DNA of 64,000 bases. Source: Candidatus Dojkabacteria bacterium (GTDB taxonomy: Bacteria; Patescibacteriota; Dojkabacteria; J137). Position 1 is the first letter of the stretch; the number at the start of each line of letters is the position of its first letter. The DNA is taken from the NCBI GenBank assembly GCA_040006935.1, contig JBDTVZ010000002.1, forward strand, positions 43,904 through 107,903, in the 5' to 3' direction. The position numbers were made by a program, and so were the translations under genes. The notes beneath the pieces were generated by a model. The model had not been told where the DNA came from, did no database searches, and saw only the letters and a program-made list of their open reading frames with translations. This document shows, one piece after another, positions 2,077-55,921 of the stretch.

Positions 2077-2444
2077 ATGAAAATAAAATCTTTCGAAGAG
2101 TTGGAGATCTGGAAGATTTCCTCAGAGTTAGCTCTGAGAATATATAAGTATACTAATCAACCAAATTTAGTAGAGATTTTGGTCTTAGAGATCAAATCAG
2201 AAGAGCTGCAGTATCTGTAAGTTCTAACATAGCTGAAGGTTTTGAAAGGAATAATAATAAAGAATTTATAAGATATCTTGTAATAGCCAAAGGTTCTGCT
2301 GGAGAAGTAAGGAGTCAGTTATATATTGCGAGAGAACTAGAATATATTACAGAAGACGAATATAATACAATCAAGAATGAGGTAGTAATTATAAGTTCAA
2401 AAATAAAAGCATTAATTAAATATTTAAAAACATTACAACTTTAA
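2077..2444 (+). pseudogene. Four-helix-bundle protein (TIGR02436 / 23S rRNA intervening-sequence protein family), frameshifted
   Basis: ATG at 2077 gives MKIKSFEELEIWKISSELALRIYKYTNQPNLVEI... and stops at 2218. The remaining family motifs (DFGLRDQIRRAAVSVSSNIAEGFERNNNKEFIRYLVIAKGSAGEVRSQLYIARELEYI...) continue in a different frame and end at 2444. The frame changes near 2165-2180. Confidence 0.6.
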
Positions 2445-2472
2445 AACATTTTAACTTTTTAACATTAGATAT

Positions 2473-3543
2473 ATGGACTACAGTCAAATACAATCTGTTC
2501 TTGGAGACAAGGCAGAGAATTTATTAAACTACAAATCTCCTACTTTTAAAGATCAGCAATTTTATAAACCAAATGGAAATTGGGTTGATGAAGTTATGGC
2601 TTTTTCTGATAGAAGTCCAAAAGTTTTAGAAAATTTAAAAAGACTTTACGGAGCTGGTAGATTAGCAAATTCTGGATACTTATCTATATTCCCAGTTGAT
2701 CAAGGAATTGAACACTCTGCTGGAGCATCTTTTGCAAAAAATCCAATTTATTTTGATCCTGAAAACATTGTTAAATTAGCTGTAGAAGCTCAAAGTAGTG
2801 GCGTTGCATCTACTTTAGGAGCTTTAGGCTTAGTTAGTAAAAAATATGCAGGCAAGATTCCTTTTATTGTTAAATTAAACCACAACGAACTTTTAACTTA
2901 TCCTAATAAATTTGATGAGGTTATGTTTAGTTCTGTTCAACAAGCTTTTGATATGGGAGCGGCAGGAGTTGGAGCAACAATATATTTTGGATCTGAAGAA
3001 TCTACAAGACAAATTCAAGAAGTTAGCCAAGCTTTTGCAAAAGCTCACGAACTTGGAATGTTCACAATTCTTTGGTGCTACACAAGAAATAGTGCATTTA
3101 AAAAGGATGTGATTGATTACCACACATCTGCAGACTTAACAGGACAAGCAAATCATTTAGGAGTAACAATTGAAGCAGATATTATTAAGCAAAAACTTCC
3201 AACTGTAAATGGTGGATTTAAAGCATTAAATTCTGGAAATTCTAGTTACGGAAAACTTGACGACAGAATGTATAGTGAGCTTTCTACTGATCATCCAATT
3301 GATTTAGCAAAATACCAAGTTGCAAATTGCTACATGGGAAAAATTCCATTAATTAATTCTGGAGGAGCTAGTGGGGATAATGATTTACAAGAAGCAATTG
3401 AAACGGCTGTTATTAATAAAAGAGCTGGTGGAAGTGGATTAATTTTAGGAAGAAAAGCTTTCCAAAAACCATTTGATGAGGGAGTTAAACTATTGAACGC
3501 TGTTCAGGATGTGTATTTATGTAAGGAAGTAGATTTAGCGTGA
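2473..3543 (+). CDS. fbaB: Class I fructose-bisphosphate aldolase (FbaB type)
   Basis: Near-collinear similarity to E. coli FbaB: [68 protein letters not shown]. Confidence 0.9.
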
Positions 3544-4061
3544 GTGAAGAAATAGCAAATTCTGAGTTAACAAATCCCGACGCATTTTTGAATAATAACC
3601 CACCCTTCCCTCCCTTAACAGGGAGGCCTACGGGAATATCGAATAGCCCCCTTGTTAAAGGGGGGCAGGGGGGATTTGTTAAGCCTGAGTATTTTGATAA
3701 ACCAGACTATATTCCATACAGTAAAAGATTGAAACCATTTTCGAGGGCCAACAGAAAATCCATGACACAAGCGGAAAAGAAGATTTGGTACGAAGTTTTA
3801 AGAGATAAAAAATTAGGATATAGATTTGTAAGGCAAAAGCCTATAGGAAAATATATTTTAGATTTCTATAGTTCTAAGTTACAATTGTGTATTGAGATTG
3901 ATGGAAGTACACATATAGGTAAAGAAATTGAGGATAGAGTAAGGGATGAATTTTTGCGAACATTAGGAATTACGACATTGAGATTTTGGAATTCAGAAAT
4001 AAAGAATGATTTAGAAAATATTAAAGAAAGGATTATAAGTTATATTAGTAAGAAATTTTAA
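3540..4061 (+). CDS. DUF559 endonuclease-domain protein; N-terminal ~50 codons are encoded by a palindromic repeat element
   Basis: The C-terminal core [48 protein letters not shown] is typical of DUF559 (Vsr-like fold). The GTG start and N-terminal extension are uncertain. Confidence 0.6.
3601..3688. repeat. Palindromic element (ccctccc-ttaaca-gggagg hairpin plus ccccc-ttgttaaa-gggggg hairpin) encoding ...PPLTGRP...[11 protein letters not shown]
   Basis: Two G/C hairpins seen directly. A related shorter copy is inserted in rarA at 55210-55262 (caccc...gggggNaggggggaNttg). Confidence 0.6.
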
Positions 4062-4126
4062 TTTAATTTTTAATAGTTGTTTATGTTAAATCCGTCAGGT
4101 CATGGTCTAATTATTAGAGCCTAAAA

Positions 4127-5290
4127 TTGCAATTGAATAAATTTTTTCAAATTATAAAAAGAAATAAATTTCGATTTGGAATTCTATCTATTGTTTTTGC
4201 TTTAACATTCTTTGTAATTTCCCTTTTTGGTTTCTGGTTTATTAATCAAAAAAATTTACCTGATCAGATTTCCGAAGATATACCTAGCGTGGGATTAATA
4301 GACACTATTGTGCGACAGGTTTTTATCAATTCTACTCTACCGATTTCTTTTCCTACTGGATCAACTTTTAGTTCTGACAATAATTTGCCTAAATTTATTA
4401 CGCAGGGTGAGGGGAATTTAGTTGTCAGTCCTCAGAAAGGTGATAATGGTGAGTACTTTATAAAGTTTGATTCACCTACAATATCTACTGTTTATTCAAT
4501 TAAAGTTTTAAATGCACCTACAGATTTGAATGAGTTGAAACAAAAATTAATGGACTACCTTGGAACAGATATAAATAAATATGGTATTTACATTAAAGAT
4601 ATTGATAGAAATACAAGCATGAATATTAATGGAGATATTGTGCTTCCACCAGCAAGTATGGCAAAAATGACAATGGCAATGTTAGTGATGAGGGATGTTG
4701 ATGCTGGGGAATATACTCTGGATGACACCTACCCCATTCAAGATAGTGTGAAGTTTTCTACAGAGGATGACCTTGGAGTACTGCCAGATGGGACAGAAGT
4801 TCCTTTGTCTACATACTTGGAGAAGTTACTTGAAGATAGTAATAATACTGCTTGGTACCATTTGGATAAATTCTTAGGTGGTTCCTACGAGAGTGTTAAT
4901 CCAAGAACTGTGAATGAATTGGGAGTTAATCCATTATTCTTAAACCCCCATGAAGGAACTGCAAATATGCTTGGAAAGTTATTTGATGATCTTTACAACG
5001 CAAGAACAGTTTCTGCTAAATCCAGAGATTATTTAATAAATCTACTTGAGAATGCGCAATCATGGAATAGAGAAGGTATTGGTTTAGGACTTCCCGCGGA
5101 TGTACAATTTGCAAATAAAATTGGGAATTTATGGACAGAAAATGATATAAATTTTTGCGATTCTGCCATAGTATATGGTAAAAATACCGATTACATTATA
5201 ATCATAATGGATAAAGACATAGATTGGGATACTGGGAAAGAAAATCTTAAAAATTTGTCTCAAATTGTTTACAGTTACTTAGATAAATAA
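4127..5290 (+). CDS. Membrane-anchored serine hydrolase, beta-lactamase/transpeptidase-like fold
   Basis: N-terminal TM helix. SxxK motif in PASMAKMTMAMLV. Length ~390 aa. Confidence 0.45.
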   Translation: MQLNKFFQIIKRNKFRFGILSIVFALTFFVISLFGFWFINQKNLPDQISEDIPSVGLIDTIVRQVFINSTLPISFPTGSTFSSDNNLPKFITQGEGNLVVSPQKGDNGEYFIKFDSPTISTVYSIKVLNAPTDLNELKQKLMDYLGTDINKYGIYIKDIDRNTSMNINGDIVLPPASMAKMTMAMLVMRDVDAGEYTLDDTYPIQDSVKFSTEDDLGVLPDGTEVPLSTYLEKLLEDSNNTAWYHLDKFLGGSYESVNPRTVNELGVNPLFLNPHEGTANMLGKLFDDLYNARTVSAKSRDYLINLLENAQSWNREGIGLGLPADVQFANKIGNLWTENDINFCDSAIVYGKNTDYIIIIMDKDIDWDTGKENLKNLSQIVYSYLDK

Positions 5291-5315: not shown

Positions 5316-6749
5316 ATGGAATACAAAGTTACTGTTATAGGATCCGGACCCGGTGGTTACACAGCAGCAATTAGGCTTGCACAATTAGGTGCAAAGGTTG
5401 CAATTGTAGAAAGAGATTTAGTTGGTGGAATTTGCACAAACTGGGGTTGTACTCCAAGCAAAGCAATGATTACTTCTGCTAAATATGCAAAATATGCGAA
5501 AGAATCAATTAAATATGGAGTGGAGATTGGCGATGCAAAAATTAATTTTCAAACAGTTGCAGAAAGAAGAGATGCTGTAATGGTTAGAACCAGAGAAGAA
5601 GTAAGGTATTTATTAGATCATTGGAATGTTGAAATTATTCAAGGAAGTGGAGAAGTTATTGATAATAATCATGTAAAAGTTTCTCCTTACGATAATCCTT
5701 ACAAAGACTTAGTACAAGCTAATGGAGAAAGTCCGTATAAAGATCATGTAACTGTTACAGAAGAAATTATTTTAGAAACTGAGAATATAATTCTTGCGAC
5801 AGGATCTGAACCACTTGTACCTTCCTTTTTACAAAAAGAAGATTCGAGCATTGTAAATAGTAATGAATTAATTTGGATTAAAGATTTACCAAAAGAATTA
5901 ACTATTGTTGGTGGTGGAATTATTGGATTAGAATTTTCTGCTCTATTCTCTCACTTTGGGACAAAAGTTAGAGTTATCGAATTTATGGACAGATGTGTTT
6001 CCATGATGGATCCAGAGATTTCCACAGAAATTGAAAACGATTTAAGAGAACAGGAAATTGAAATCTTAACCGGACACAAGGTTTTAGATATTACTAGTGG
6101 CAAAGTTACGGTTGAAGTAATAGCTACTGGAGAAAAAAAAGAAATAATTTCTGAAATGAATTTAGTAGCAATTGGAAGAAAAGCAATTATTAATAATCCA
6201 ATGTTAGAAAAATTAGGAATCGCTTTCACACCAAAAGGAATTAGTGTCGATAATTTTATGAAAACGAATGTTTCTAATATTTATGCAATTGGAGATGCTA
6301 CAGGTTTGAGTATTCTTGCTCACGTTGCAATTCAACAAGGAATAATTGCCGCAGAAAACATTATGGGCAAGACTCGTGAGATGAATTATGATGTAATTCC
6401 AGCAGTAGTTTACACACTTCCCGAGGTGGCAACAGTTGGGACCGTTCCTGCAGATCTAAGTGGAATTAAAGTTGTTAAATTTCCATTCTCTGCAAACTTA
6501 AGAGCAAATATTGAAGAACATAATACAGGATTTGCTAAACTATGGATAAACGAAAAAGACCTGACTTTAATAGCAGCACAAATGATTGGACATATGGCTG
6601 GAGAGATTATTCAAGCTTATGGCAATATAGTTCAAAATAAAATAAATATCGAAGCTATTGCAAATACAATTCATGCACATCCTACTTACAATGAGATTGT
6701 AAGGAATTCTTTTGAATATGCTTTGGGAAGAGCTATTGAGTTTATTTAA
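5316..6749 (+). CDS. lpd: Dihydrolipoyl dehydrogenase family pyridine-nucleotide disulfide oxidoreductase
   Basis: FAD-binding GSGPGGYTAAIRLAQLG, redox disulfide GGICTNWGCTPSKAM, C-terminal dimerisation HAHPTYNE. Confidence 0.7.
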   Translation: MEYKVTVIGSGPGGYTAAIRLAQLGAKVAIVERDLVGGICTNWGCTPSKAMITSAKYAKYAKESIKYGVEIGDAKINFQTVAERRDAVMVRTREEVRYLLDHWNVEIIQGSGEVIDNNHVKVSPYDNPYKDLVQANGESPYKDHVTVTEEIILETENIILATGSEPLVPSFLQKEDSSIVNSNELIWIKDLPKELTIVGGGIIGLEFSALFSHFGTKVRVIEFMDRCVSMMDPEISTEIENDLREQEIEILTGHKVLDITSGKVTVEVIATGEKKEIISEMNLVAIGRKAIINNPMLEKLGIAFTPKGISVDNFMKTNVSNIYAIGDATGLSILAHVAIQQGIIAAENIMGKTREMNYDVIPAVVYTLPEVATVGTVPADLSGIKVVKFPFSANLRANIEEHNTGFAKLWINEKDLTLIAAQMIGHMAGEIIQAYGNIVQNKINIEAIANTIHAHPTYNEIVRNSFEYALGRAIEFI

Positions 6750-7938: not shown

Positions 7939-8484
7939 TTATGCTTCTGTTAAAACTGGGAATTCCCTTGTTAAAAAATCTGCAAATGCAAACATATCTA
8001 TAGGTTTTCGAAGTATATTTTCACTTTTTATATTTGTATATTGAGGATCTAAATCATTATATTGTGATGACCATAGTTGGACAATGATGTTGTCCCTTGG
8101 ATTTTGCAATATGATGTTAGCTATCTTATCTCCTTTTATAGTTCTAGTAAAGCAATCGAGGTTTCTATCGAGCATTAATAATACTTTAGTATCATCAGGA
8201 ATACTTCGTACCCATTCTTCAATTAAATCTCCTAAGTATGCTTCGTATTTCTGAACCTGAGCATGGGTTAGAATAATTTTTGCTACATATGGTATTTTAA
8301 AACTGACTGCAAGATCTATAATATTGCTAGTCTCATCGTCTAATACAAATACTACTTGTTTTTTCCCACCAATCATTGCCTCCATCTCCTTAAGAAAATC
8401 AATTTTCAAACTTTCGTAATCAATAGGTACTTCTGGCATAAGTAAGTATAAAAAAAATATTTTAAAGAACTTTAATAGCTTCAC
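7939..8484 (-). CDS. Hypothetical protein (weak receiver-domain-like pattern)
   Basis: ORF with KQVVFVLDDET...VLLMLDRNL pattern. No firm homology. Overlaps the dus start by 23 nt. Confidence 0.3.
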   Translation of the reverse strand: MKLLKFFKIFFLYLLMPEVPIDYESLKIDFLKEMEAMIGGKKQVVFVLDDETSNIIDLAVSFKIPYVAKIILTHAQVQKYEAYLGDLIEEWVRSIPDDTKVLLMLDRNLDCFTRTIKGDKIANIILQNPRDNIIVQLWSSQYNDLDPQYTNIKSENILRKPIDMFAFADFLTREFPVLTEA

Positions 8485-9562
8485 TCAATATCTGTCTCAC
8501 TTCCTCAATTGTCTTTGTTTGCATTAGTTTTGATCTTAATCCAACAGCATTATCGAAATTTGTACAGTACCATCCAAAATGTTTTCTCATCATTACAAAT
8601 GCTCGGGGATCTGGAAATATTTGTATGAACTTTTCTGCATGCTCTAATAGCGTGGCGATTCTATCTTCCTTAGTTTTCATGACCTTACCCTCACCTCTAA
8701 GTTCATTAAATATCCATGGATTTCCATAAGTTGCTCTACCAACCAAGACTCCGTACGCACCTGTTAATTCTAGAATTTTTTCAACATCATCTCTGGATTT
8801 AATATCACCATTAGCAAGAACAGGTTTGGATGTAGACTCAACAGCAATTTTTATTTCATTCCAATCTGCAGCGCCACCATAAAGTTGTTTTAGAGTTCTT
8901 CCATGAACAGTAATCCAATCTGGATTCGCTTTATCAATATTTCCAATCCATTGTTTAGTGACTGGAACATCGTAACCAATTCGTGTTTTTACTGAAACTG
9001 GAATGAGTTCCCGAAACACCTCCCGGTTCTCCGAACCACCCTCCTCAAGGAGGGACTTTCTTTCTCTATTGATCTGACTCTGATTTTTTACGGCATTGTA
9101 ACTTCTTTCTTTTAATCCCGTTAATTCTCCATTCTCTACCCAATGTTTTACTCCTTCTCTAACTGCTGCAATGATTTCCCTTGCTAAATCTGGAGTTCGG
9201 ATTAAACCCGCACCAGATCCGCTATTTGCAACAGTTTTTGCAGGGCATCCCATATTAATATCAACTCCTGTAAAACCAAGTTCGCAAATTATTTTTGCTG
9301 CATGGTAAAAATAATCTGGTTCTTTCCCGAAAATCTGGCCAAAAACAGGCCTTTCACTTTCATCATAAATAAAATGATGTAGAACATTATCTCCAGCCAT
9401 GCACATTCCCATTACATGAGTAAATTCAGTAAAAGTTACATCAGGATTTCCGTATTTTTTTGTAATATATCTAAAAGGCGCATCAGTAATCCCATCCATT
9501 GGGGATAGTCCTATTACTGGTGCTTTTAGATCCTGTATTCTAAACATCTTAATTAATAACAA
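8462..9562 (-). CDS. dus: tRNA-dihydrouridine synthase (DusB-like), carrying an in-frame palindromic insertion
   Basis: GLSPMDGITDAPFR, FGQIFG, GFTGVDINMGCPAK motifs. Insertion peptide KSLLEEGGSENREVF. Confidence 0.85.
   Translation of the reverse strand: MLLIKMFRIQDLKAPVIGLSPMDGITDAPFRYITKKYGNPDVTFTEFTHVMGMCMAGDNVLHHFIYDESERPVFGQIFGKEPDYFYHAAKIICELGFTGVDINMGCPAKTVANSGSGAGLIRTPDLAREIIAAVREGVKHWVENGELTGLKERSYNAVKNQSQINRERKSLLEEGGSENREVFRELIPVSVKTRIGYDVPVTKQWIGNIDKANPDWITVHGRTLKQLYGGAADWNEIKIAVESTSKPVLANGDIKSRDDVEKILELTGAYGVLVGRATYGNPWIFNELRGEGKVMKTKEDRIATLLEHAEKFIQIFPDPRAFVMMRKHFGWYCTNFDNAVGLRSKLMQTKTIEEVRQILSEAIKVL
9015..9057. repeat. Family-A palindromic element inside dus (aacacctcccggttctccgaaccaccctcctcaaggagggact)
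   Basis: Hairpin ccctcc-tcaa-ggaggg. The same element, with an extra nested hairpin, occurs in mnmA at 9723-9787. Confidence 0.7.
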
Positions 9563-9628: not shown

Positions 9629-10783
9629 TCATTTAATAACTCCACCTCCTAAACAAACTTCTCCAGAATAAATAACTAAACTTTGTCCAGATGCTACAGC
9701 TCTGACGGGTTCATCAAATATGAACACCTCCCGGTTCTTCATGCCTGACGGCAGGCAAGCCGGACCACCCTCCTCAAGGAGGGATTTTCTGATTAATTTT
9801 CCTGCTACTGGTTTTTGTCTGTATCTAACACTTGCTTCTAATTTTATTTCTGAGATTTGGTCTCTGAGTTCAGGATTTATCAAATGTAAATTCTCTAATT
9901 CTACTTCCTGAGAATACAATGCTTTGTGATCAGATCCCAAACATACATAGACAATATTTTTCTCAATATCTTTTTTACAAACAAAATATGGAACCACAGT
10001 TCCTCCAATTCCTAAACCATCTCTTTGCCCAATTGTATAAAAGTACACTCCTTTATGTTTTCCTACAACTTTATTCGTATCAATATCTCTAATTTCACCT
10101 TCTTTTACTGGAATTTTACTCATTAAAAATTGTAGAACATTAATCTCTCCTATAAAGCAAATCCCTTGGCTATCAGGTTTTTTAGCGTTTGGAAGTTCAG
10201 CTTCTTCTGCAATCTTTCGAACTTCTGGTTTTTGTAAATGACCTATTGGGAATAAAACTTTATCTAATTGATCGTGAGTTAGATTGTAAAGGAAATAAGT
10301 TTGATCTTTATTCGAATCTTTTCCCTTTAACATAAACGGTCCTTGAGATCCTCTGAGATCTGATGACTGATAACTCATAATTTTCTGTGCATAATGTCCA
10401 GTGGCAATGAAATCTGCACCTTCTGAAATTGCTTTCTCTAAAAATAACTTGAATTTGATTTCTTTGTTACACATCACATCAGGGTTTGGTGTTCTCCCTT
10501 TTTCGTATTCATTAAAAAAATATTCAACAACTTTATCTCTATATTGCTTTTCAAAATTCATGGATCTAAATGGAATTCCAATGTGCTTGCAAACTGCTTC
10601 TGCATCTTTTTGATCTTCTTCCCAGGGGCAATCAGCTTGTATCCCAAATTCATCACCAGACCAATTTTTCATATAAACTCCAGTTACATCGTAACCTTGT
10701 TTCTTTAAAAGATATGCGGAAACGGCAGAATCGACTCCGCCGGAAAGACCTACAAATACTTTTTTACCTTTTATCTGATTCAT
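9629..10783 (-). CDS. mnmA: tRNA-specific 2-thiouridylase MnmA, carrying an in-frame palindromic insertion near the C-terminus
   Basis: KKVFVGLSGGVDSAVSAYLL PP-loop motif. Start trimmed to MNQIKGKK (ATG at 10781-10783) because the longer ORF N-terminus is encoded by a palindromic repeat. Insertion peptide KSLLEEGGPACLPSGMKNREVF. Confidence 0.8.
   Translation of the reverse strand: MNQIKGKKVFVGLSGGVDSAVSAYLLKKQGYDVTGVYMKNWSGDEFGIQADCPWEEDQKDAEAVCKHIGIPFRSMNFEKQYRDKVVEYFFNEYEKGRTPNPDVMCNKEIKFKLFLEKAISEGADFIATGHYAQKIMSYQSSDLRGSQGPFMLKGKDSNKDQTYFLYNLTHDQLDKVLFPIGHLQKPEVRKIAEEAELPNAKKPDSQGICFIGEINVLQFLMSKIPVKEGEIRDIDTNKVVGKHKGVYFYTIGQRDGLGIGGTVVPYFVCKKDIEKNIVYVCLGSDHKALYSQEVELENLHLINPELRDQISEIKLEASVRYRQKPVAGKLIRKSLLEEGGPACLPSGMKNREVFIFDEPVRAVASGQSLVIYSGEVCLGGGVIK
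9723..9787. repeat. Family-A palindromic element inside mnmA with nested gcctgacggcaggc hairpin
   Basis: aacacctcccggttcttcatgcctgacggcaggcaagccggaccaccctcctcaaggagggatt. The ends are shared with the dus copy. The centre carries the GCCTG...CAGGC hairpin family. Confidence 0.7.
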
Positions 10784-10947
10784 TGAATTTTTGAATAGAT
10801 CTTTCGACAAGCTCCATGCTCGCATGCCCAAGGCAGGCAAGCGGGACATGTAAAATTAGATTTCGAAAAACATAGCTCTTCTCAATAAATTTTACCGTTG
10901 ATTATACCATGCAGAAGCAAATTAGAACCGACACAGACTTAGGAGTA

Positions 10948-23617: not shown

Positions 23618-23695
23618 TAAAAATACTAAGCTCTAAAATACTAAATCCCAAACAATTTCAAAGATTTTAGAGATTAGTATTTAGAGCTTAATTAT
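23618..23695. repeat. Long inverted repeat (tactaagctctaaaatacta ... tagtatttagagcttaat) at the gpmI 3' end
   Basis: Arms at about 23623-23645 and 23673-23692. Motif aagctctaaatactaag recurs at 41283-41310. Spacer motif cccaaacaatttcaaa recurs at about 9590. Confidence 0.45.
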
Positions 23696-25224
23696 TCAAC
23701 AATTACTAAACTAGTTCCTGTCATCACACCTGGTTTTTCCAGTCCCATTAAGTCTAGAATAGTTGGTGCAATGTCCTCCAAACTTTCTCTTTTATCTAGT
23801 TTACATCTAATATCTGAAATTAAAATAAAAGGTACGGGAGATGTTGTATGTTGAGTATGCGGTTGATTATTTACATAATCCCACATGATATCGGAATTCC
23901 CATGGTCCGCTGTAACCATTAGAACATAATCCTTGAACTTTTCTTTAATTGTTTCGTAAATTTTTCCTAAACAATAATCTACAGATTCTGCGGAAATGAT
24001 AGCAGCCTCATAATTACCACTATGTCCAACCATATCCGGACTACTTAAATTCGCAATTATAAAACTATATTTATCGGAATTAACAGCGTCGACAATATCT
24101 TGAGTGATATCATAATTTCTCATGCTTGGTTCAAAATTATAATATGGTTTTACATATCTATTAGATTGAATCATTTTCCACTCCTCATGAGGCATTTCTT
24201 TTTCCTTCTCACCATTTAAAAAGAAAGTTAGATGAGGATATTTTTCTGTCTCAGTTACATGAAATTGTGCAAGTCCAGCATTTGAAATTACCTCGGCCAA
24301 TGTGTCAGAAATTTTATCCCTTGGAAAAGCTAGCTGCACACTCTCAAATTCTTCGCTAACACTTATGAATGTTGTCACATTTAAATTTTTAATTTCCTCT
24401 TGTAAAAGTCTTTTTACAATCTGATAAAGTCTATCTGTTCTATAATGAAAGAAAATCACACTGTCATTTGCTCCAATCTTTCCATCCTCATTTATTACAT
24501 AATGGCCAATAAATTCATCTGTAGTGTTTTGATTGTATTCCATGTTTAAAACACTCTGCCAATCAGAAAATTTTGCACCTTTACCTTTATATATCAACTC
24601 AAAAGCTTTTTCAGTTTTTGCCCAATCTCTATCCCTATCTAAATAAAACCTACCTTGCATTGTTGCAACGGAAATTTTTAAATCAGGATATTTAGCAATC
24701 GTTTTATCTAAGGCAGCAAAAAATCTTTCTGCAGATTTTGGAGGTGTATCTCGACCGTCTGTGAACACATGTAAATAAATATTTTGTTTAAATTTATTTC
24801 TGTGAAGCATTTCTAAAATTGCGAACACATGTTCTGTAGTAGAATGAATGCCACCATCACTCAAAATTCCGATTAAATGAACATTGGATTTATTATCAGC
24901 TGCATGGTCAATTGATTTTTGAAAAGTAGCATTATTATAGAATTCTCCAGTTTCAATTGCGTGATTGATTTTAGGTAAATCTTGATAAATAACTCTTCCT
25001 GCACCGATTGTCATGTGATTAACTTCAGAAGTACCAAATTGCCCTTCTGGTAGACCAACTGCAATACCATCAGATTTTAATCTTGTATTTGGATATTCTC
25101 GTACTAACATATCAAAGTTAGGAGTTTTTGCATTATCAATGGCGTTAAATTTATCTGCAGGAGCTAAGCCCCAGCCATCCATAATTAAAAGTACAACTTT
25201 CTTTTTTAATTTTTTAGTAGACAT
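23692..25224 (-). CDS. gpmI: 2,3-bisphosphoglycerate-independent phosphoglycerate mutase
   Basis: Start trimmed to MSTKKLKKKVVLLIMDGWG (ATG at 25222-25224). The upstream 220 nt of the longer ORF is a GC-rich non-coding leader. Remaining iPGM motifs are present. Confidence 0.85.
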   Translation of the reverse strand: MSTKKLKKKVVLLIMDGWGLAPADKFNAIDNAKTPNFDMLVREYPNTRLKSDGIAVGLPEGQFGTSEVNHMTIGAGRVIYQDLPKINHAIETGEFYNNATFQKSIDHAADNKSNVHLIGILSDGGIHSTTEHVFAILEMLHRNKFKQNIYLHVFTDGRDTPPKSAERFFAALDKTIAKYPDLKISVATMQGRFYLDRDRDWAKTEKAFELIYKGKGAKFSDWQSVLNMEYNQNTTDEFIGHYVINEDGKIGANDSVIFFHYRTDRLYQIVKRLLQEEIKNLNVTTFISVSEEFESVQLAFPRDKISDTLAEVISNAGLAQFHVTETEKYPHLTFFLNGEKEKEMPHEEWKMIQSNRYVKPYYNFEPSMRNYDITQDIVDAVNSDKYSFIIANLSSPDMVGHSGNYEAAIISAESVDYCLGKIYETIKEKFKDYVLMVTADHGNSDIMWDYVNNQPHTQHTTSPVPFILISDIRCKLDKRESLEDIAPTILDLMGLEKPGVMTGTSLVIVE

Positions 25225-25239
25225 CTTTAGATGATTAAT

Positions 25240-25400
25240 AATTATTAGGGCTAAATAATAGCTTTTAAAGTATATATTGTCTAGGGAGAATAATTCTACC
25301 CTTCGACTCCGCTCAGAGTGACACGGTGTCATGGTGGGCCTAGTTGAACCATGACCTTGCTTCACAGAGTCGCAACGAGTAACACCACCTTGCTGACTTA
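25240..25400 (-). ncRNA. Candidate structured 5' leader / cis-regulatory RNA upstream of gpmI
   Basis: Local GC about 50% against about 32% background. Hairpins gtcatgg...ccatgac and gacac-c-gtgtc. Duplicated gcaaggt motif. Unclassified. Confidence 0.25.
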
Positions 25401-25430
25401 TCATGAAAGTATGATAGGTGGTAAAGTCAT
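25401..25430 (-). CDS. 9-codon upstream ORF MTLPPIILS with RBS (GGGAG), duplicated at 63139-63168
   Basis: ttaatagATGACTTTACCACCTATCATACTTTCATGA versus ttaaataATGACTTTACCACCTATCATATTTTCATGA at 63132-63168. Confidence 0.35.
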   Translation of the reverse strand: MTLPPIILS

Positions 25431-25554
25431 CTATTAACTCCCTCAACCCGTCTTAACAAGAAGGGAGCTTAATAATCTGGGGATTCTCTTCATTCCATAA
25501 TAACTACTCATGAGATTTCTCTTTTAATTGAACTCCTTTTAATTTTTAATTGAA

Positions 25555-27992: not shown

Positions 27993-30602
27993 ATGACTAG
28001 AAAAAATATATTAACCGTATTAACTGGAATCTTTTTTGTGCTTTTAATTGGAGTTGGAATTTATTTTGCAATCCAAGCAACAAATAACCAAGCCCCTGGT
28101 GATGCCGCAGCTTTAGGATGTTTTCAAAGAAGCTTAGCATGTACAGGTAGTGGTTGTTATTGTGGTTCAAACTATGCAAGTGCCACTTGTAATACTAATG
28201 CGAATGGTTGCAGCCCAGTTGCTGATTGGTGCCAAAGTATAACTTGTAATCCACCGCCACCAGTTCAGCCACCGCCACCGCCACCGCCTCCTAATGCACC
28301 ACCTAATACTCCTCCACCTCCAGCACCTACATGCTATGGATCAGGAAATGCTAATGCCTGTAGTAATCCTGGTCAAGTAGTTCCATATGCAGATTCCAAC
28401 AATATTGTAACTTCATGTACTTGTGCAAGAACTACAGGTACTTTATGCTCCTGTGTGCCAAGTAATGGAACAACATGTATTGCTGATGTTACAGGAACAA
28501 ATTGTGCCTCTAAAGGAGTAGGAGCTTCATGTTCGGCTGGGAATAATGGAACTGGTTATTGTCAATCAACGGGAGTTACAAATGGTAGCTTAAATTGTGC
28601 TTGCCATGTTACAGCAAATGTCCCTCCAGCACCTCCAACAGGTTGTACTTCAGATAGTTCTTGCAATGCAGGTCAGTTTTGTAGTACAAGCAACGGAGTG
28701 TGTGGTGCTAAGCTTGCAAATGGAGTTCAAGGCTGTTCTAGTAATAATATGTGTTTAAGTGGAAGTTGTTCAAATAACTTTTGCGTCGCCACTGCACAAC
28801 CTCCTCCTGCTACAAGTGGCGGTGGAACAACTGGCGGGGCTGCTGCTGGTGCTTCTTGTATATCAAATGCCAATTGCGGAACTGGTTTAGTTTGCCAAGG
28901 TACTAATGGAAGTAAAGTTTGCCAAGTTGCAAGCAATTGTAACGCAAGTAATCCTAGCCAATGTAATTGTAATACTGGAGGTGCAGTTTGTAGCGGATAC
29001 CTAGCTTTCACTTGTAATCAATTAACAAATGGACAATGTTTAAGTAACCCTCAAGATGCCTCTAGCGAGGCAGATGCTACTAGTAAAGCAGGTGTCTGCG
29101 GTCAAGTAGATCAAGTTTGGGTTGGAGGTCCATGTAATAGAACTTTATGCGGTGGATTTACGGTATATAATCAATGTTCCGGCGGTGGCACATCCACAGG
29201 TGGAACAACCGTTACACCTCCGCCACCACCTCCACCACCACCACCTCCTCCTCCTGGCACACCTTATTGTGGAGATTCTCTTTGTGCAACTAATGAACTT
29301 TGCGAAAGGACTGCACCAAATGCAACTACTTACAAAGCATGCACAAGCGCAAGCGGAGTAGCTCCAACAGGATCCGATGTTTCTTTATGTTATGGAGTAG
29401 GATTTAGTCAACCAGTACAATCAAGTACCTGTAAATATTGTGGAGATGGAACTTACACTCCAGGAACAGAACAATGTGATGCATCTGCACCAGCAACTGG
29501 TGGCAATAATCCTGCACAATGTAGTGCATCTTGTACTTTAAATCCTGTTGCTAATGTTTGTATAAGTATGACAGAAAATGGAGTTGATCCAGTACGATCT
29601 GGTACTTCTAACTTTATAGACTATGTATTAGTATTCCAGAATAGTTCAACAAGTAACCCATTCCCTAATATTAGATTATTAGTTTCAACATCAAACACAG
29701 TTGCAACAGCAGTAGGAAGAGATGCGAATAATGTATCTAGTGCGCTAGTAGCACCAATTCCAACTGGAGGTTACACATATGACTCTGTAACATCAAGGCA
29801 TACCTATACCTTCAGATGGGAATCTGTAAGTACAGGTGGAGTTCCTGTTCCAGATGCGAGTTACACTGTAAGAGGATTAACAAATGGGACTGACGGATCT
29901 ATAGTTACAACACCAGCAGAATGTACAGAGAGCATAACTACATCAGCTGCACAGGTACAAGAGCCATTATTTAATATTATTAAAACTGCTGTGGAAACTT
30001 GCGGTGAAGGTACAAATGCTGTAATCAATTATACTGTAACAGTAACTAATGTGGGACCAGTATCTGGAGTAGTGGACTTTGTTACAGATACACTAGATCC
30101 ACTAATAGTTAGCTTGGGAATAACACCAACTAGTATTAATCCCGCATCTGGGAATTATTCTGCAGGTGTAATTACGTGGACTGGTACAGTAGGAGAGAGA
30201 ACATTCACTGCTGGGCAATCTAAGACTTATACTTATACTGTTACTATTCCGTCTAATCAAGTTCTTAACTTTGCAAGTGCTGGTGTACAAAACTTAGCTG
30301 CTGTCCAATACGATACAAATACAACATCTAACAATACTTCCAGCTTTAATTTAAGAACAATGTTAAGTTGTACTATAAATGGTATTCCAATTACTGGAAT
30401 ATTTGATGATGGTAAATTGCTCTTGTTTGGATTAGTATTTATATTCTTAGGATTTGTAGCTTATAGATATCAAATTGGTAAAACAATTTCCGAAAAATTA
30501 ATTTCTGGAGCTTTGAATACTGCAGAAGGTGGCGTTGAAAAATTAATGCCATTTGAAGACAGAATTGAAAGAAAAATGGAAAAAAGAAGAAAGAAAGAAT
30601 AA
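27993..30602 (+). CDS. Large Cys-rich cell-surface protein with poly-Pro linkers, DUF11-like repeat and C-terminal TM anchor
   Basis: N-terminal TM helix; more than 60 Cys; PPPPVQPPPPPPPPNAPP and P13 tracts. DUF11-like NYTVTVTNVGPVSGVVDFVTDTLDP. C-terminal TM helix LLLFGLVFIFLGFVAY. Confidence 0.6.
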   Translation: MTRKNILTVLTGIFFVLLIGVGIYFAIQATNNQAPGDAAALGCFQRSLACTGSGCYCGSNYASATCNTNANGCSPVADWCQSITCNPPPPVQPPPPPPPPNAPPNTPPPPAPTCYGSGNANACSNPGQVVPYADSNNIVTSCTCARTTGTLCSCVPSNGTTCIADVTGTNCASKGVGASCSAGNNGTGYCQSTGVTNGSLNCACHVTANVPPAPPTGCTSDSSCNAGQFCSTSNGVCGAKLANGVQGCSSNNMCLSGSCSNNFCVATAQPPPATSGGGTTGGAAAGASCISNANCGTGLVCQGTNGSKVCQVASNCNASNPSQCNCNTGGAVCSGYLAFTCNQLTNGQCLSNPQDASSEADATSKAGVCGQVDQVWVGGPCNRTLCGGFTVYNQCSGGGTSTGGTTVTPPPPPPPPPPPPPGTPYCGDSLCATNELCERTAPNATTYKACTSASGVAPTGSDVSLCYGVGFSQPVQSSTCKYCGDGTYTPGTEQCDASAPATGGNNPAQCSASCTLNPVANVCISMTENGVDPVRSGTSNFIDYVLVFQNSSTSNPFPNIRLLVSTSNTVATAVGRDANNVSSALVAPIPTGGYTYDSVTSRHTYTFRWESVSTGGVPVPDASYTVRGLTNGTDGSIVTTPAECTESITTSAAQVQEPLFNIIKTAVETCGEGTNAVINYTVTVTNVGPVSGVVDFVTDTLDPLIVSLGITPTSINPASGNYSAGVITWTGTVGERTFTAGQSKTYTYTVTIPSNQVLNFASAGVQNLAAVQYDTNTTSNNTSSFNLRTMLSCTINGIPITGIFDDGKLLLFGLVFIFLGFVAYRYQIGKTISEKLISGALNTAEGGVEKLMPFEDRIERKMEKRRKKE

Positions 30603-34372: not shown

Positions 34373-34400
34373 CCTGCGTGCGCAGGCAGGACGAAATGAC
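34373..34400. repeat. cctgcgtgcgcaggcaggacgaaatgac copy of the GCCTGCG-N-CGCAGGC / gaaatgac repeat family
   Basis: Shares gcaggcagg-(t)cg(a/c)aatgac with 42371-42398 and 41515-41538. Confidence 0.5.
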
Positions 34401-38460: not shown

Positions 38461-38472
38461 TATTGTAATAGT

Positions 38473-38508
38473 CCCCTCTCCTTTTAAGGAGAGGGTTAGG
38501 GTGAGGTC
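38473..38508. repeat. Hairpin cccctctcc-ttttaa-ggagaggg plus gggtgagg
   Basis: Related to 43362-43429 (ccctctcc...ggagaggg, cctcaccc...gggtgagg). Confidence 0.5.
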
Positions 38509-38655
38509 AAAAAGATAAGACTGCCAAGCAATCGAGTGTCGTAACCCCACAAAATATTAACTGCCCGAAGAGTGTATGAGGTGGGCTAAAGCCAACATAA
38601 ATCTAAAGCTCATAAATTCGCTAAGATTTATAGCTGTATTGTAATAGATTCGAAA

Positions 38656-42102: not shown

Positions 42103-42222
42103 TTGTGTCATTTCGACTGACCTGCCTGACTGCGTACGCAGGCACGGGGAGTGTAACGACGAATGGAGACATCTTCGACCACGGAGGTTAAAGATCTCTC
42201 GACTTCGCTCGAGATGACACAA
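42103..42222. mobile_element. MITE-like element with TIR TTGTGTCATTTCGA...TCGAGATGACACAA and nested cctgcctgactgcgtacgcaggca hairpin
   Basis: Collinear with 38342-38460 apart from the inserted hairpin module. Confidence 0.6.
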
Positions 42223-42335: not shown

Positions 42336-42400
42336 TGAGATTGCTTCGTCGCTGTGCTCCCCATGCCTGCGTACGCAGTCAGGCAGGTCGCAATGACAAC
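42336..42400. repeat. gagattgcttcgtcgct-[gcctgcgtacgcagtcaggc hairpin]-gtcgcaatgaca element
   Basis: Inverted copy of the hairpin module at 42118-42148. Just 3' of the uvrB fragment. Confidence 0.55.
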
Positions 42401-42450
42401 GAAAGGTTATTCGGGGATTCTTCTCTTAATTATTAATTTATAATTCTTAA

Positions 42451-43344: not shown

Positions 43345-43361
43345 ATAGGAATTATATCACG

Positions 43362-43429
43362 CCTCACCCGTCTCTCACTTCGTTCGAGCCACCCTCTCCA
43401 GCAAAGATGGAGAGGGGCTTGGGGTGAGG
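43362..43429. repeat. Nested palindromic element cctcaccc...ccctctcc-agcaaagat-ggagaggg...gggtgagg
   Basis: Nested perfect stems. Shares ctcacttcgttcg with the MITE family. Confidence 0.55.
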
Positions 43430-43749
43430 TTACAAACTCTTAATTCTTAATTGATCATTATCTAGGTAAATCACTATTCGAAGGTAAATGTTCCGTTGCA
43501 ATTTTAGAAAGCGATTCCTTTCCACTTCCATTAAAAAATTTCCCTATTCCAAAAATATCAAAACCTTCCAATAGCCATAAAATTCCATAACCAAATGTCA
43601 TGATAGCTTTAGCTAGAAATTTTAAAATTGAAAGAAGTATTTCCATAATTTAATTTTAACACTTGAAAAAGTTGATCTATTAATTATTTACAGAGATTTT
43701 ATATTATTGTTACATTACTCTTTAGTCAGCATTTATACAGACTGTGTTA

Positions 43750-43773
43750 CCTGCCTGACTGCGCACGCAGGCA
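43750..43773. repeat. cctgcctgactgcgcacgcaggca hairpin module
   Basis: Same module as 42118-42148 and 42361-42388. Confidence 0.55.
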
Positions 43774-48925: not shown

Positions 48926-48955
48926 ACCTGCCTGGCGCGACGGCAGGCAGGTCGT
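48926..48955. terminator. Palindrome gacctgcctg-gcgcgacg-gcaggcaggtc between convergent kef and lysS
   Basis: 10-bp GC stem of the CCTGCCTG/CAGGCAGG repeat family, between a plus-strand stop (48892) and a minus-strand stop (48977). Confidence 0.5.
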
Positions 48956-54682: not shown

Positions 54683-55921
54683 TTGGAACCTTTAGCTTCA
54701 AAATTTCGACCACAAAATCTTAATGAATTTATTGGACAAGAACATCTTGTTGGTGAAGGTAAACCTATACGAAAATTTATAGAAACTGGAAATATTCCTT
54801 CAATGATTTTTTGGGGACCTCCTGGAACTGGGAAAACTACATTAGCTTATATTATTTCTAAAACTGTTCATGCAGATTTTTACAAACTTTCTGCGGTAAT
54901 GAGTGGGAAAGCACAACTTATGGATATTATTAAAAAAGCCATGAAGCAAAGCCAATCCCCTACTTTAACAGGTGGCGATAAGACAATCTTATTTCTGGAT
55001 GAAATTCATCGATGGAATAAATCTCAACAGGATGCATTACTTCCTTATGTTGAAAAAGGTGTAATAATTTTAATTGGAGCGACGACTGAAAACCCATCCT
55101 TTAGTTTAATCCCTGCTCTGCTTTCAAGGTGTAGAGTGTTTACATTTCAAAAGCATGAGACTACGGATGTGGAAAAATATGTGAATTTACTCGTTGAAAA
55201 ACTAAATAACACCCCCGACTTCGTCATCCCTTCTTTATCAAAGAGGGGGAAGGGGGGAGTTGATATTGATAAAGAATCTATTGAATTTATTGCGAAAGCA
55301 TCAGATGGAGATTTAAGAACATCAGCAAATATTTTAGAATCTACTCTATTTGCAGGGGAAGGGGAAATTAATAAAGAAATTTTGAAGAAGACGGTAGAAA
55401 ATTTCTTACAATACGAAAGTAGAGGTGAGGACCATTACAATATAATTTCTGCAGTACATAAATCTTTAAGGGATTCTGATCCAGATGCAGGAGTTTATTG
55501 GGTTACTAGAATGCTGGAAGCTGGAGATGATCCACTTTATATCGCACGAAGACTTTTGAGGTTCGCATCCGAAGATATTGGAAATGCTGATCCACAAGCT
55601 GTGATTTTAGCAAATACAATTTTTGAAACTTGTCAAAAATTAGGAAGACCAGAATGTGATGTGGCATTAATTCAACTAGCAATTTATTTAGCCAGAGCTC
55701 CAAAAAGCAACGAAGCTTATTTTGCAAGTAATTTAGCAAAGCAAGATGTGCAAGAATATGGTTCGCTTCCTGTGCCCTTGCATATTAGGAACGCACCTAC
55801 TAAACTGATGAAAGAATTAAACTATGGGAAAGGTTATAAATATGCCCATGATTATAAAGATGCGAAAGTGGATCAAGAACATTTGCCTGATCAATTGAAA
55901 AATAAGAAATATACTAAATAA
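54683..55921 (+). CDS. rarA: Recombination factor RarA/MgsA AAA+ ATPase with in-frame palindromic insertion
   Basis: FWGPPGTGKTT, LFLDEIHRWNKSQQDALLPYVEKG, C-terminal MgsA domain. Insertion peptide PDFVIPSLSKRGKGGVDID. Confidence 0.85.
   Translation: MEPLASKFRPQNLNEFIGQEHLVGEGKPIRKFIETGNIPSMIFWGPPGTGKTTLAYIISKTVHADFYKLSAVMSGKAQLMDIIKKAMKQSQSPTLTGGDKTILFLDEIHRWNKSQQDALLPYVEKGVIILIGATTENPSFSLIPALLSRCRVFTFQKHETTDVEKYVNLLVEKLNNTPDFVIPSLSKRGKGGVDIDKESIEFIAKASDGDLRTSANILESTLFAGEGEINKEILKKTVENFLQYESRGEDHYNIISAVHKSLRDSDPDAGVYWVTRMLEAGDDPLYIARRLLRFASEDIGNADPQAVILANTIFETCQKLGRPECDVALIQLAIYLARAPKSNEAYFASNLAKQDVQEYGSLPVPLHIRNAPTKLMKELNYGKGYKYAHDYKDAKVDQEHLPDQLKNKKYTK
55210..55262. repeat. Family-B palindromic element inside rarA (cacccccgacttcgtcatcccttctttatcaaagagggggaaggggggagttg)
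   Basis: Same ends and G/C hairpin layout as 3601-3688. The encoded KRGKGGV parallels VKGGQGGF. Confidence 0.6.

Follow-up and report, generated by a model that had tools for sequence, protein, structure and literature searches.

A doublet of GC-rich palindromic units bounds a predicted DUF559 nuclease gene in a Candidatus Dojkabacteria genome, and inverted units recur around related genes in other bacteria

Palindromic repeats that enter genes or accompany an enzyme have been described in several bacterial systems. Rickettsia palindromic elements (RPEs) are inserted in frame in genes, together with other repeats resembling MITEs, the miniature inverted-repeat transposable elements (Ogata et al. 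2000, reviewed in PMC10969869). In the REPIN/RAYT relationship, repetitive extragenic palindromic (REP) doublets forming hairpins are paired with REP-associated tyrosine transposases (PMC3116915, PMC3337134). I-Bth0305I is a Vsr-like homing endonuclease of the EDxHD type, with relatives in split-intein fractured genes (PMC3239194, PMC3424549). The locus described here lies in a stretch of 64,000 nt (64 kb) of contig JBDTVZ010000002.1 from Candidatus Dojkabacteria; this whole stretch is called the window, and positions are its coordinates unless another locus is named. It holds a gene for a DUF559 protein whose open reading frame (ORF) runs through two GC-rich hairpins. The two hairpins are GC-rich palindromic units in inverted orientation, and together, as a doublet, they form the upstream boundary of a DUF559 cassette. 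In most relatives of the same subfamily the DUF559 gene lies between inverted units, and a unit-gene-unit block of about 0.5 kb recurs across unrelated contexts and phyla. The features of the locus are:

3540 to 4061, forward strand: ORF of the DUF559 (Vsr-like PD-(D/E)XK nuclease) protein, 173 aa as called from GTG 3540, assigned from Pfam, PDB 3HRL and invariant columns
3544 to 4126, forward strand: 583-nt segment with the units, DUF559 and an AT-rich tail, missing in the sister genome L081
3567 to 3682, unstranded: 116-nt composite palindromic element in which a doublet of inverted units lies between two outer arms, themselves a 12-nt inverted pair
3567 to 3578, unstranded: outer left arm TTAACAAATCCC, 100% complementary to 3671-3682
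3597 to 3627, unstranded: left unit, C-rich outer arm AACCCACCCTT and palindrome CCTCCC-TTAACA-GGGAGG
3646 to 3676, unstranded: right unit, palindrome GCCCCC-TTGTTAAA-GGGGGGC and G-rich outer arm GGGGGGATT
3671 to 3682, unstranded: outer right arm GGGATTTGTTAA
from about 3711, forward strand: conserved N-terminal segment of the family (aa 56-74), from a 19-sequence alignment
3726 to 4043, forward strand: DUF559 domain proper (aa 63-168), from Pfam and the alignment

The original prediction had placed two tight hairpins in the early part of this ORF, and both were found there, as perfect GC hairpins: ccctccc-ttaaca-gggagg at 3608-3626 and ccccc-ttgttaaa-gggggg at 3647-3665. They occupy codons 20-46, upstream of the nuclease core, for which the Pfam domain begins at residue 63. 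The segment 3599-3675 has 60% GC against 33.7% for the window, and a C5 run ahead of a G5-6/NN/G6 pair occurs in the 64 kb only here and at a site in rarA. The predicted RNA fold of 3590-3700 has -44.7 kcal/mol (z = -2.7), and the DNA fold of 3560-3690, at -23.8 kcal/mol (z = -3.0), was equalled by 0 of 200 shuffles. The modules 3597-3627 and 3646-3676 are inverted copies of each other with 77% complementarity, and the outer left arm TTAACAAATCCC has four matches in the window at up to one mismatch, where 0.69 are expected. The left unit is near-identical to the left end of a DUF559 cassette from Shapirobacteria (L014), and the right unit to units upstream of DUF559 in L010, L018 and L117. Each unit combines a palindrome with an outer arm that is rich in G or in C, and may also contain a small hairpin. 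Four of the six frames of the right unit are open, and stop codons are almost absent from the units, so that ORFs run through them. Rfam at gathering score gave 0 matches in the whole window, not even a tRNA, and thus no known structured RNA. The original prediction presented the hairpins as coding sequence, a framing that misses the main point: they are repeats at the boundary of a DUF559 cassette, and the repeat family of which they are members is pan-bacterial.

The protein itself is a member of the DUF559, or Vsr-like PD-(D/E)XK, nuclease family and, judged from its sequence, a predicted nuclease. It matches the PF04480 profile with 106.2 bits (cut-off 20.6) over positions 2-107 of 109 and the solved Neisseria DUF559 structure 3HRL with E = 1e-18. 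All 12 invariant columns found in the 19-sequence alignment are kept, including ILDFY and the E-x-D-G-x3-H core and catalytic residues. The YcjD equivalog model NF007294 was not reached (63.7 bits against a cut-off of 218). The protein forms a singleton cluster without a relative above 50% identity, in a family that counted 20,446 cluster representatives at E <= 1e-3 in a full-library search. DUF559 shares its fold and catalytic residues with Vsr, E. coli YcjD and Neisseria 3HRL, but unlike Vsr and YcjD it behaves genomically as a mobile cassette and not as a housekeeping repair gene. No transposase was recognised in the cassette, where DUF559 is the sole ORF, and no cytosine methyltransferase adjoins the gene.

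The surroundings of related genes were compared in the 80 best loci of the window protein's DUF559 subfamily, one genome per species, drawn from candidate phyla radiation groups, Proteobacteria, Bacteroidota, Spirochaetota, Thermotogota, Chloroflexota and others. In these 80 loci GC-rich palindromes stand on both sides of almost every DUF559 gene, and the left flank is the reverse complement of the right. Flank symmetry was expressed as an ungapped inverted-repeat score between the 200 nt on either side of the gene, for 73 loci and 292 shifted controls. A score of at least 12 was reached by 66% of the loci and 0.7% of the controls, and a score of at least 14 by 52% and 0%, respectively. A GC-rich hairpin lies within about 220 nt upstream of the gene in 63 of the 80 loci and within the same distance downstream in 55, compared with 16.4% of 2091 control windows from the same loci. 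The same palindrome was found again in its own locus in 13 of 70 cases, whereas a palindrome borrowed from another locus was found in 2 of 70. Two arrangements occur. In the first the order is outer-C arm and palindrome, gene, palindrome and outer-G arm, so that DUF559 sits inside the doublet; in the second it is palindrome and outer-G arm, gene, outer-C arm and palindrome, which places DUF559 between outward-facing units.

This pattern resembles REPIN/RAYT systems in that abundant palindromes form inverted doublets, with a short spacer, that make long hairpins, in the window at 3597-3627/3646-3676, and in that a low-copy gene is flanked by inverted units, at 66% of the loci and in the window on the upstream side only. 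The feature that defines REPIN/RAYT systems is, however, absent: the flanked gene is DUF559 and not an HUH (IS200/IS605-like) tyrosine transposase. Further differences are that the units are heterogeneous within one genome, that no GTAG/CGTC tag was seen, and that DUF559 cassettes look horizontally mobile and enter coding sequences.

Non-syntenic DUF559 loci are homologous at the nucleotide level only over 467-548 nt, with the gene in the middle, as in the pairs L001/L002 (76%), L062/L065 (80%), L015/L047, L035/L055 and L014/L024. Because the homology stops about 0.5 kb around the gene, the units and DUF559 behave as a discrete cassette. The pattern is also present in complete isolate genomes and is therefore not an artefact of metagenome-assembled genomes (MAGs): on a Deinococcus psychrotolerans plasmid DUF559 lies between paaD and paaZ with near-perfect inverted repeats of about 50 nt around the gene, and in Picosynechococcus PCC 7002 it lies amid arrays of units. 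The Deinococcus psychrotolerans protein WP_124874550 represents a clean copy of the cassette. The L001 and L002 cassettes, 76% identical over 486 nt, come from a MAG labelled Alphaproteobacteria (36% GC) and a Shapirobacteria MAG; either cross-phylum transfer or a binning error may account for this. DUF559 relatives are rare in records of plasmids (44 of 72,556) and of phages (3 of 50,697), and plasmid or phage carriage was therefore rejected as the main vehicle.

At one locus (L063) the last ten codons of the DUF559 ORF (DDLPDYVVDD) copy the C-terminus of the upstream YcgN-like gene (DDLPDYVVDE*), at 4860-4885 and 5380-5417 of that locus. The cassette appears to have entered the 3' end of the YcgN-like gene, with an imperfect duplication of about 27 nt restoring the gene end. 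Terminal inverted repeats (TIRs) around DUF559 cassettes recall TIR transposons and MITEs. Unlike these, the cassettes have no recognised transposase, and no target-site duplication was seen at the junction of the solo unit in rarA or at the aldolase junction; L063 has the imperfect one of about 27 nt.

In the window the cassette follows a gene for a class I aldolase. The closest available genome, L081, has an aldolase that is 89% identical and full length in both genomes, and its gene order matches the window except for an Ldh gene after the beta-lactamase-like gene. In L081 the aldolase stop overlaps the start of this beta-lactamase-like gene (TAATG), and the 583 nt of 3544-4126 are missing. 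Judged by this sequence comparison, the segment could be either an insertion in the window genome or a deletion in L081; no target-site duplication was seen at the aldolase junction. Several close homologues of the aldolase are 15-60 residues longer than its 356 aa, namely P0152, P0153, P0155 and P0163 (371 aa), P0161 (417 aa), and P0222 and P0237 (393-394 aa); these might carry similar inserted or extending elements.

Cassettes were also found in frame inside host genes. The DUF559-containing ORF has at least 200 aa in 16 of the 80 loci, and in at least 13 a long host ORF continues on one or both sides. Pfam recognised host domains in 9 of 10 embedded proteins scanned; the hosts are EPSP synthase, IleRS, a MurD-like ligase, N6/N4 methyltransferase, OMP decarboxylase, YgiQ radical SAM, and MmeI-family, DUF1156 and type ISP enzymes. 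Several of them come from genomes of 31-37% GC, so that a chance open frame of such length is not credible. In L018 the two parts of the AroA protein that flank the insert align to residues 6-287 and 306-423 of E. coli EPSP synthase. Its ORF reads ...EIK-APLIKGVGGL-[DUF559]-SPKSPLSRG-LTLIGP..., with the same frame and peptide type as the window ORF, and L110, a metagenome contig of independent origin, carries the insertion too. At the junctions the palindromes are translated into the peptides APLIKGVGGL, SPKSPLSRG or PSPAGGRGAGGEG, with PL.KGG.GG as the general linker form. Solo units in frame also occur in cassette-bearing host genes, one of them in L067 and missing in its orthologue L078. 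Among the top 149 cluster representatives from the full-library search, 15 have at least 290 aa and about a quarter carry N-terminal extensions of palindrome-type peptides. An intein or intron was rejected as explanation for the embedded copies, for which Pfam gave only host domains and DUF559, with neither a Hint domain nor intein-type junction residues.

As with EDxHD homing endonucleases (I-Bth0305I; PMC3239194), a Vsr-fold nuclease would thus be a selfish gene inside host genes, with presence/absence polymorphism at a defined site. In contrast to these enzymes there is no group I intron or intein, the insertion is translated through and not spliced, palindromic repeats form the flanks, and the proteins are of about 115 aa without NUMOD DNA-binding modules.

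Some further observations concern the host genes. The L018 AroA ORF (2353-4158 of that locus) has an extra solo in-frame unit near its LGNAGTA motif (SPNPSPLLKERKGES), and its called N-terminus holds VIPVRTGI, which resembles a palindrome-derived peptide. Eight embedded cassettes are in DNA methyltransferase or restriction-modification genes (L013, L040, L041, L042, L043, L050, L067 and L078) of the MmeI family, type ISP, type III-like Mod and DUF1156 kinds, and the Picosynechococcus DUF559 gene adjoins a DUF1156 gene. This bias could reflect target preference, tolerance or, by analogy with Vsr and Dcm, a functional tie to methylation.

Units without the nuclease occur in the window as well. 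That a related element is inserted in rarA, as had been predicted, was borne out, and two intergenic elements share its spacer:

55205 to 55258, forward strand: solo unit in frame in rarA, made up of a 36-nt insertion at 55205-55240 (NNTPDFVIPSLS, 12 extra residues) and 18 rewritten bases at 55241-55258
38470 to 38510 and 43360 to 43435: intergenic units of the CCCTCTCC...GGAGAGGG + GGGTGAGG type, with the ACTTCGT(TCG) spacer in common with the rarA element

The rarA element is built of C5, an ACTTCGT spacer, CCCTTCTTT-ATC-AAAGAGGGG, GAA and G6. In an alignment of the 50 best-scoring RarA proteins the other 49 (66-87% identity) do not have its insertion, and the rewritten stretch reads KRGKGG instead of KADKVK, with K(A/E)(D/E)K(V/I)K in the nearest homologues. 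The unit upstream of DUF559 and the two intergenic elements, at 38474 and 43392, are organised in the same way as the rarA element: the C-rich outer arm is followed by a spacer with ACTTCGT and the inner palindrome, and 2-3 nt separate this palindrome from the G-rich outer arm. We take units of the CCCTCTCC...GGAGAGGG + GGGTGAGG type to be the DNA behind the PLS..GEG.GVR peptides that are common in databases.

Two adjacent tRNA-modification genes in the window also have GC-rich inserts in frame, dus (ORF 8462 to 9562, reverse strand) at 8997-9066 and its neighbour mnmA (ORF 9629 to 10849, reverse strand) at 9717-9794. Both inserts carry the same palindrome CCCTCCTCAAGGAGGG, read as SLLEEGG, and a second palindrome GCCTGACGGCAGGC is nested in the mnmA insert. 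At these inserts the Pfam match is split or cut short, in Dus as well as in the C-terminal barrel of MnmA.

Short palindromes in frame in unrelated housekeeping genes, here rarA, dus and mnmA, are a trait shared with RPEs, as are the absence of the rarA insertion from aligned orthologues and the reading of palindromes as extra peptide segments. The units of the window differ in being GC-rich in an AT-rich genome and in having 30-55 nt against about 150 nt for RPEs, size and composition being the properties compared. They also span many phyla, whereas RPEs are confined to one genus, and they are tied to a nuclease gene, whereas RPEs have no known enzyme.

The pattern as a whole is probably explained by a selfish cassette with a Vsr-like nuclease, for which palindromic units would be the sites of landing or recognition and which would spread by repair or recombination. 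Vsr nicks DNA, and it is this known chemistry of the Vsr fold, together with the formal analogy to REPIN/RAYT, that leads us to propose action on the units. DUF559 would nick or cut the palindromes, whether duplex or extruded, or the DNA near them, and repair of breaks or recombination would carry its gene into sites where units are already present. The units might then serve both as recognition sites and as short homology arms, in a process that would be homing-like, or REPIN/RAYT-like with another enzyme. Insertions within genes would survive only in frame and so give rise to translated Pro/Gly-rich linkers. As the window copy has neither a right-hand unit nor a start codon behind the units, it may be translated by coupling from GTG 3540 through the hairpins or may be starting to decay.

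Several results weigh against the proposed cassette mechanism. Judged from sequence comparison, the functional tie between DUF559 and the units is a correlation only, and the 80 loci are top matches to one subfamily and not a random DUF559 sample. The two gene-unit arrangements do not fit a single simple insertion rule. The window cassette is one-sided, with units upstream only: 3' of the DUF559 stop there is no convincing right-hand unit but only AT-rich chance repeats, and a resemblance to TTAAATCC at 4086-4093 was rejected as too weak and too short to count. At rarA the junction is an 18-nt replacement without a target-site duplication, and so without a known signature of transposition. A homogeneous REPIN population is not what the window shows, as its seven units differ in sequence. 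Finally, it is clear that the units persist, and probable that they spread, with no DUF559 gene next to them. A scan of metagenome contigs found the exact pattern GCCCCCTTGWTAAAGGGGG 133 times, in 120 loci. After nearly all of these matches come an optional small hairpin and GGGGGATT, and DUF559 lay within 900 nt of just four of the 133. Some of the scanned units are paired as doublets with a 13-nt spacer (L114, L122, L165 and L182), and some precede T runs. Among 89 non-redundant evaluable units, 18 (about 20%) are within ORFs that stay open for at least 80 codons on each side; all four stop-free frames are used, and one of the 18 is the AroA cassette copy in L110.

The 97% of scanned units without a nearby DUF559 gene, the heterogeneity of unit sequences and the T runs would also be consistent with the absence of any functional link. 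The units would then be generic REP-like or terminator-like intergenic repeats, and DUF559 genes would merely reside in such regions or be passive cargo of an unknown transposase. We consider this very unlikely, since the gene flanks are inverted copies of each other far above controls (66% against 0.7%), homology is limited to the cassette across unrelated contexts, and units flank DUF559 even inside host ORFs, where accumulation in intergenic DNA does not apply. Also doubtful, at the other extreme, is a more far-reaching version of the selfish cassette. In that version DUF559 proteins would be the dedicated partners of a pan-bacterial superfamily of GC-rich palindromes, a PD-(D/E)XK counterpart of REPIN-RAYT, and the cassette would be a new homing element without intron or intein. 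It would enter essential genes in frame (AroA, IleRS, MurD-like, restriction-modification methyltransferases) and be translated through, its palindromes acting as flexible Pro/Gly linkers. In a literature search of incomplete coverage no paper was found that links DUF559 (COG2852) to palindromic repeats or in-frame insertion, which is no proof of novelty.

A separate matter is whether the hairpin peptide is translated in the window gene. The called start GTG 3540 overlaps the stop of the aldolase gene (TGA 3541-3543; GTGA), and the other in-frame starts are TTG 3588, TTG 3732 and ATG 3762. The original prediction took the palindrome to supply coding sequence. This is true of units elsewhere, as in L018 AroA and the 18 of 89 units in ORFs, but does not describe the usual situation: among 50 stand-alone homologues that have a hairpin upstream, 48 possess a canonical start between this hairpin and the core, and therefore the unit is normally an untranslated flank. 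For the window gene the matter is about evenly balanced, translation of the extension being plausible but unproven.

If translation starts at GTG 3540 or TTG 3588, the hairpins encode a Pro/Gly-rich N-terminal extension. This would be compatible with the cassette explanation and concerns expression only, and we give it a chance just short of even. These two starts, both upstream of the hairpins, are the only ones that would include the conserved residues 56-74, as no ATG, GTG or TTG occurs in frame between the units and that segment, and the segment has stayed close to that of homologues such as P0006 (LPYNRKLKPFSQINRKS). The position of GTG 3540 suits translational coupling, AAGGAAG lies 10 nt upstream of it, and the sister genome L081 also couples the aldolase to its downstream gene. 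L018 AroA certainly reads the unit in the frame of the window ORF. Many database DUF559 proteins are likewise extended without room for a start, for example P0275 (...KGGKGGYIPYNK) and P0266 (...PPFMKGGQGGF), but such extensions are possibly gene-caller artefacts. The position of the start in the 48 homologues argues against a translated extension, and the frame through the hairpin is open in just 11 of them, no more than chance. A stop-free stretch over 3540-3710 arises by chance in 5.4% of shuffles in which the AT-rich parts were shuffled. A further caution for the DUF559 case comes from other genes of the window, as the starts of mnmA and iPGM (gpmI) were probably called too far upstream, artificially extending their ORFs through GC elements. 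The 5' end of the mnmA ORF at 10796-10854 (MSRLPALGMRAWSLSK...) and the 5' part of the iPGM ORF (23692 to 25446, reverse strand) at 25294-25356 (GHGSTRPTMTPCHSERSRRVE) are GC-rich upstream extensions, and the Pfam domains start only at residues 28 and 81, respectively.

In the opposite case translation starts downstream, at ATG 3762 or TTG 3732, and the hairpins are an untranslated flank, that is a 5' untranslated region, a promoter region or an aldolase terminator. This agrees with the untranslated state of the unit in most homologues. The crystallised Neisseria DUF559 protein (3HRL, 104 aa) begins at the equivalent of M75, as do the homologues P0015, P0017 and P0018, which makes ATG 3762 a possible start. 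A weak promoter-like TTGATA-17-TACAGT is present at 3694-3722 and a terminator-like call at 3647-3673, with tail ATTTGTTAAG, but a scan of 3300-4300 was not above shuffles (8 promoters against 4.7 +/- 2.4, 1 terminator against 0.6). A downstream start would also sacrifice the conserved residues 56-74, which are within the Pfam model, and GAGGG at 15 nt from ATG 3762 is poor Shine-Dalgarno spacing. We regard a downstream start as doubtful.

The lack of both a proximal start and a right-hand unit could also mean that the window copy is a decaying cassette which lost them, the long ORF being a leftover. The status of the protein as a singleton without a relative above 50% identity would be in line with decay. 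Its core, however, is intact, with all invariant residues and a Pfam score of 106 bits, there is neither a frameshift nor an internal stop, and the frame is open exactly from the aldolase stop, all of which makes decay unlikely. Two further ideas on expression were dropped. The TTGACA palindrome loops gave the impression of -35 boxes, an impression only, and lie 9-11 nt from TATAAT-like boxes, the wrong spacing for sigma-70. A programmed frameshift joining aldolase and DUF559 lacks a slippery heptamer at 3531-3543.

The window holds a second repeat family, GTCATTTCGAC..CCTGCCTGACTGCGTACGCAGGCA..GGGGAG, with a MITE-like inverted pair at 42105-42150 and 42365-42408, about 200 nt apart. Single copies are at 34373-34395, 43750-43772 and 48927-48950, and one is nested in mnmA at 9743-9756. 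In the ORF at 27993 to 30602 (forward strand) the GC-rich part 28236-29278 consists of proline-run coding repeats (CCACCGCCACCTCC...) and not of palindromes, and is a separate phenomenon.

The window feature is the repeat boundary of a DUF559 palindrome cassette, and it is the broader pattern behind its hairpins that is of interest. Neither the annotated 173-aa DUF559 protein nor several other ORF starts whose frames pass through GC elements should be accepted as they stand. In-frame nuclease insertions bear on protein evolution and on annotation, through start calls, spurious extensions and fused domain architectures. The insertions in AroA, IleRS and the MurD-like ligase, without intron or intein, suggest that a selfish nuclease gene can persist in essential genes, where it is tolerated as an inserted domain. 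The DUF559 family is very large and has no assigned role, and peptide scars of GC-rich palindromes, of the forms PL.KGG.GG and PSP..GRG.GGEG, litter bacterial protein databases. Linking DUF559 to palindromes would give the family a function that can be tested and would account for these scars. If true, the link would bring a second class of enzyme into the repeat-plus-enzyme paradigm of REPIN/RAYT.

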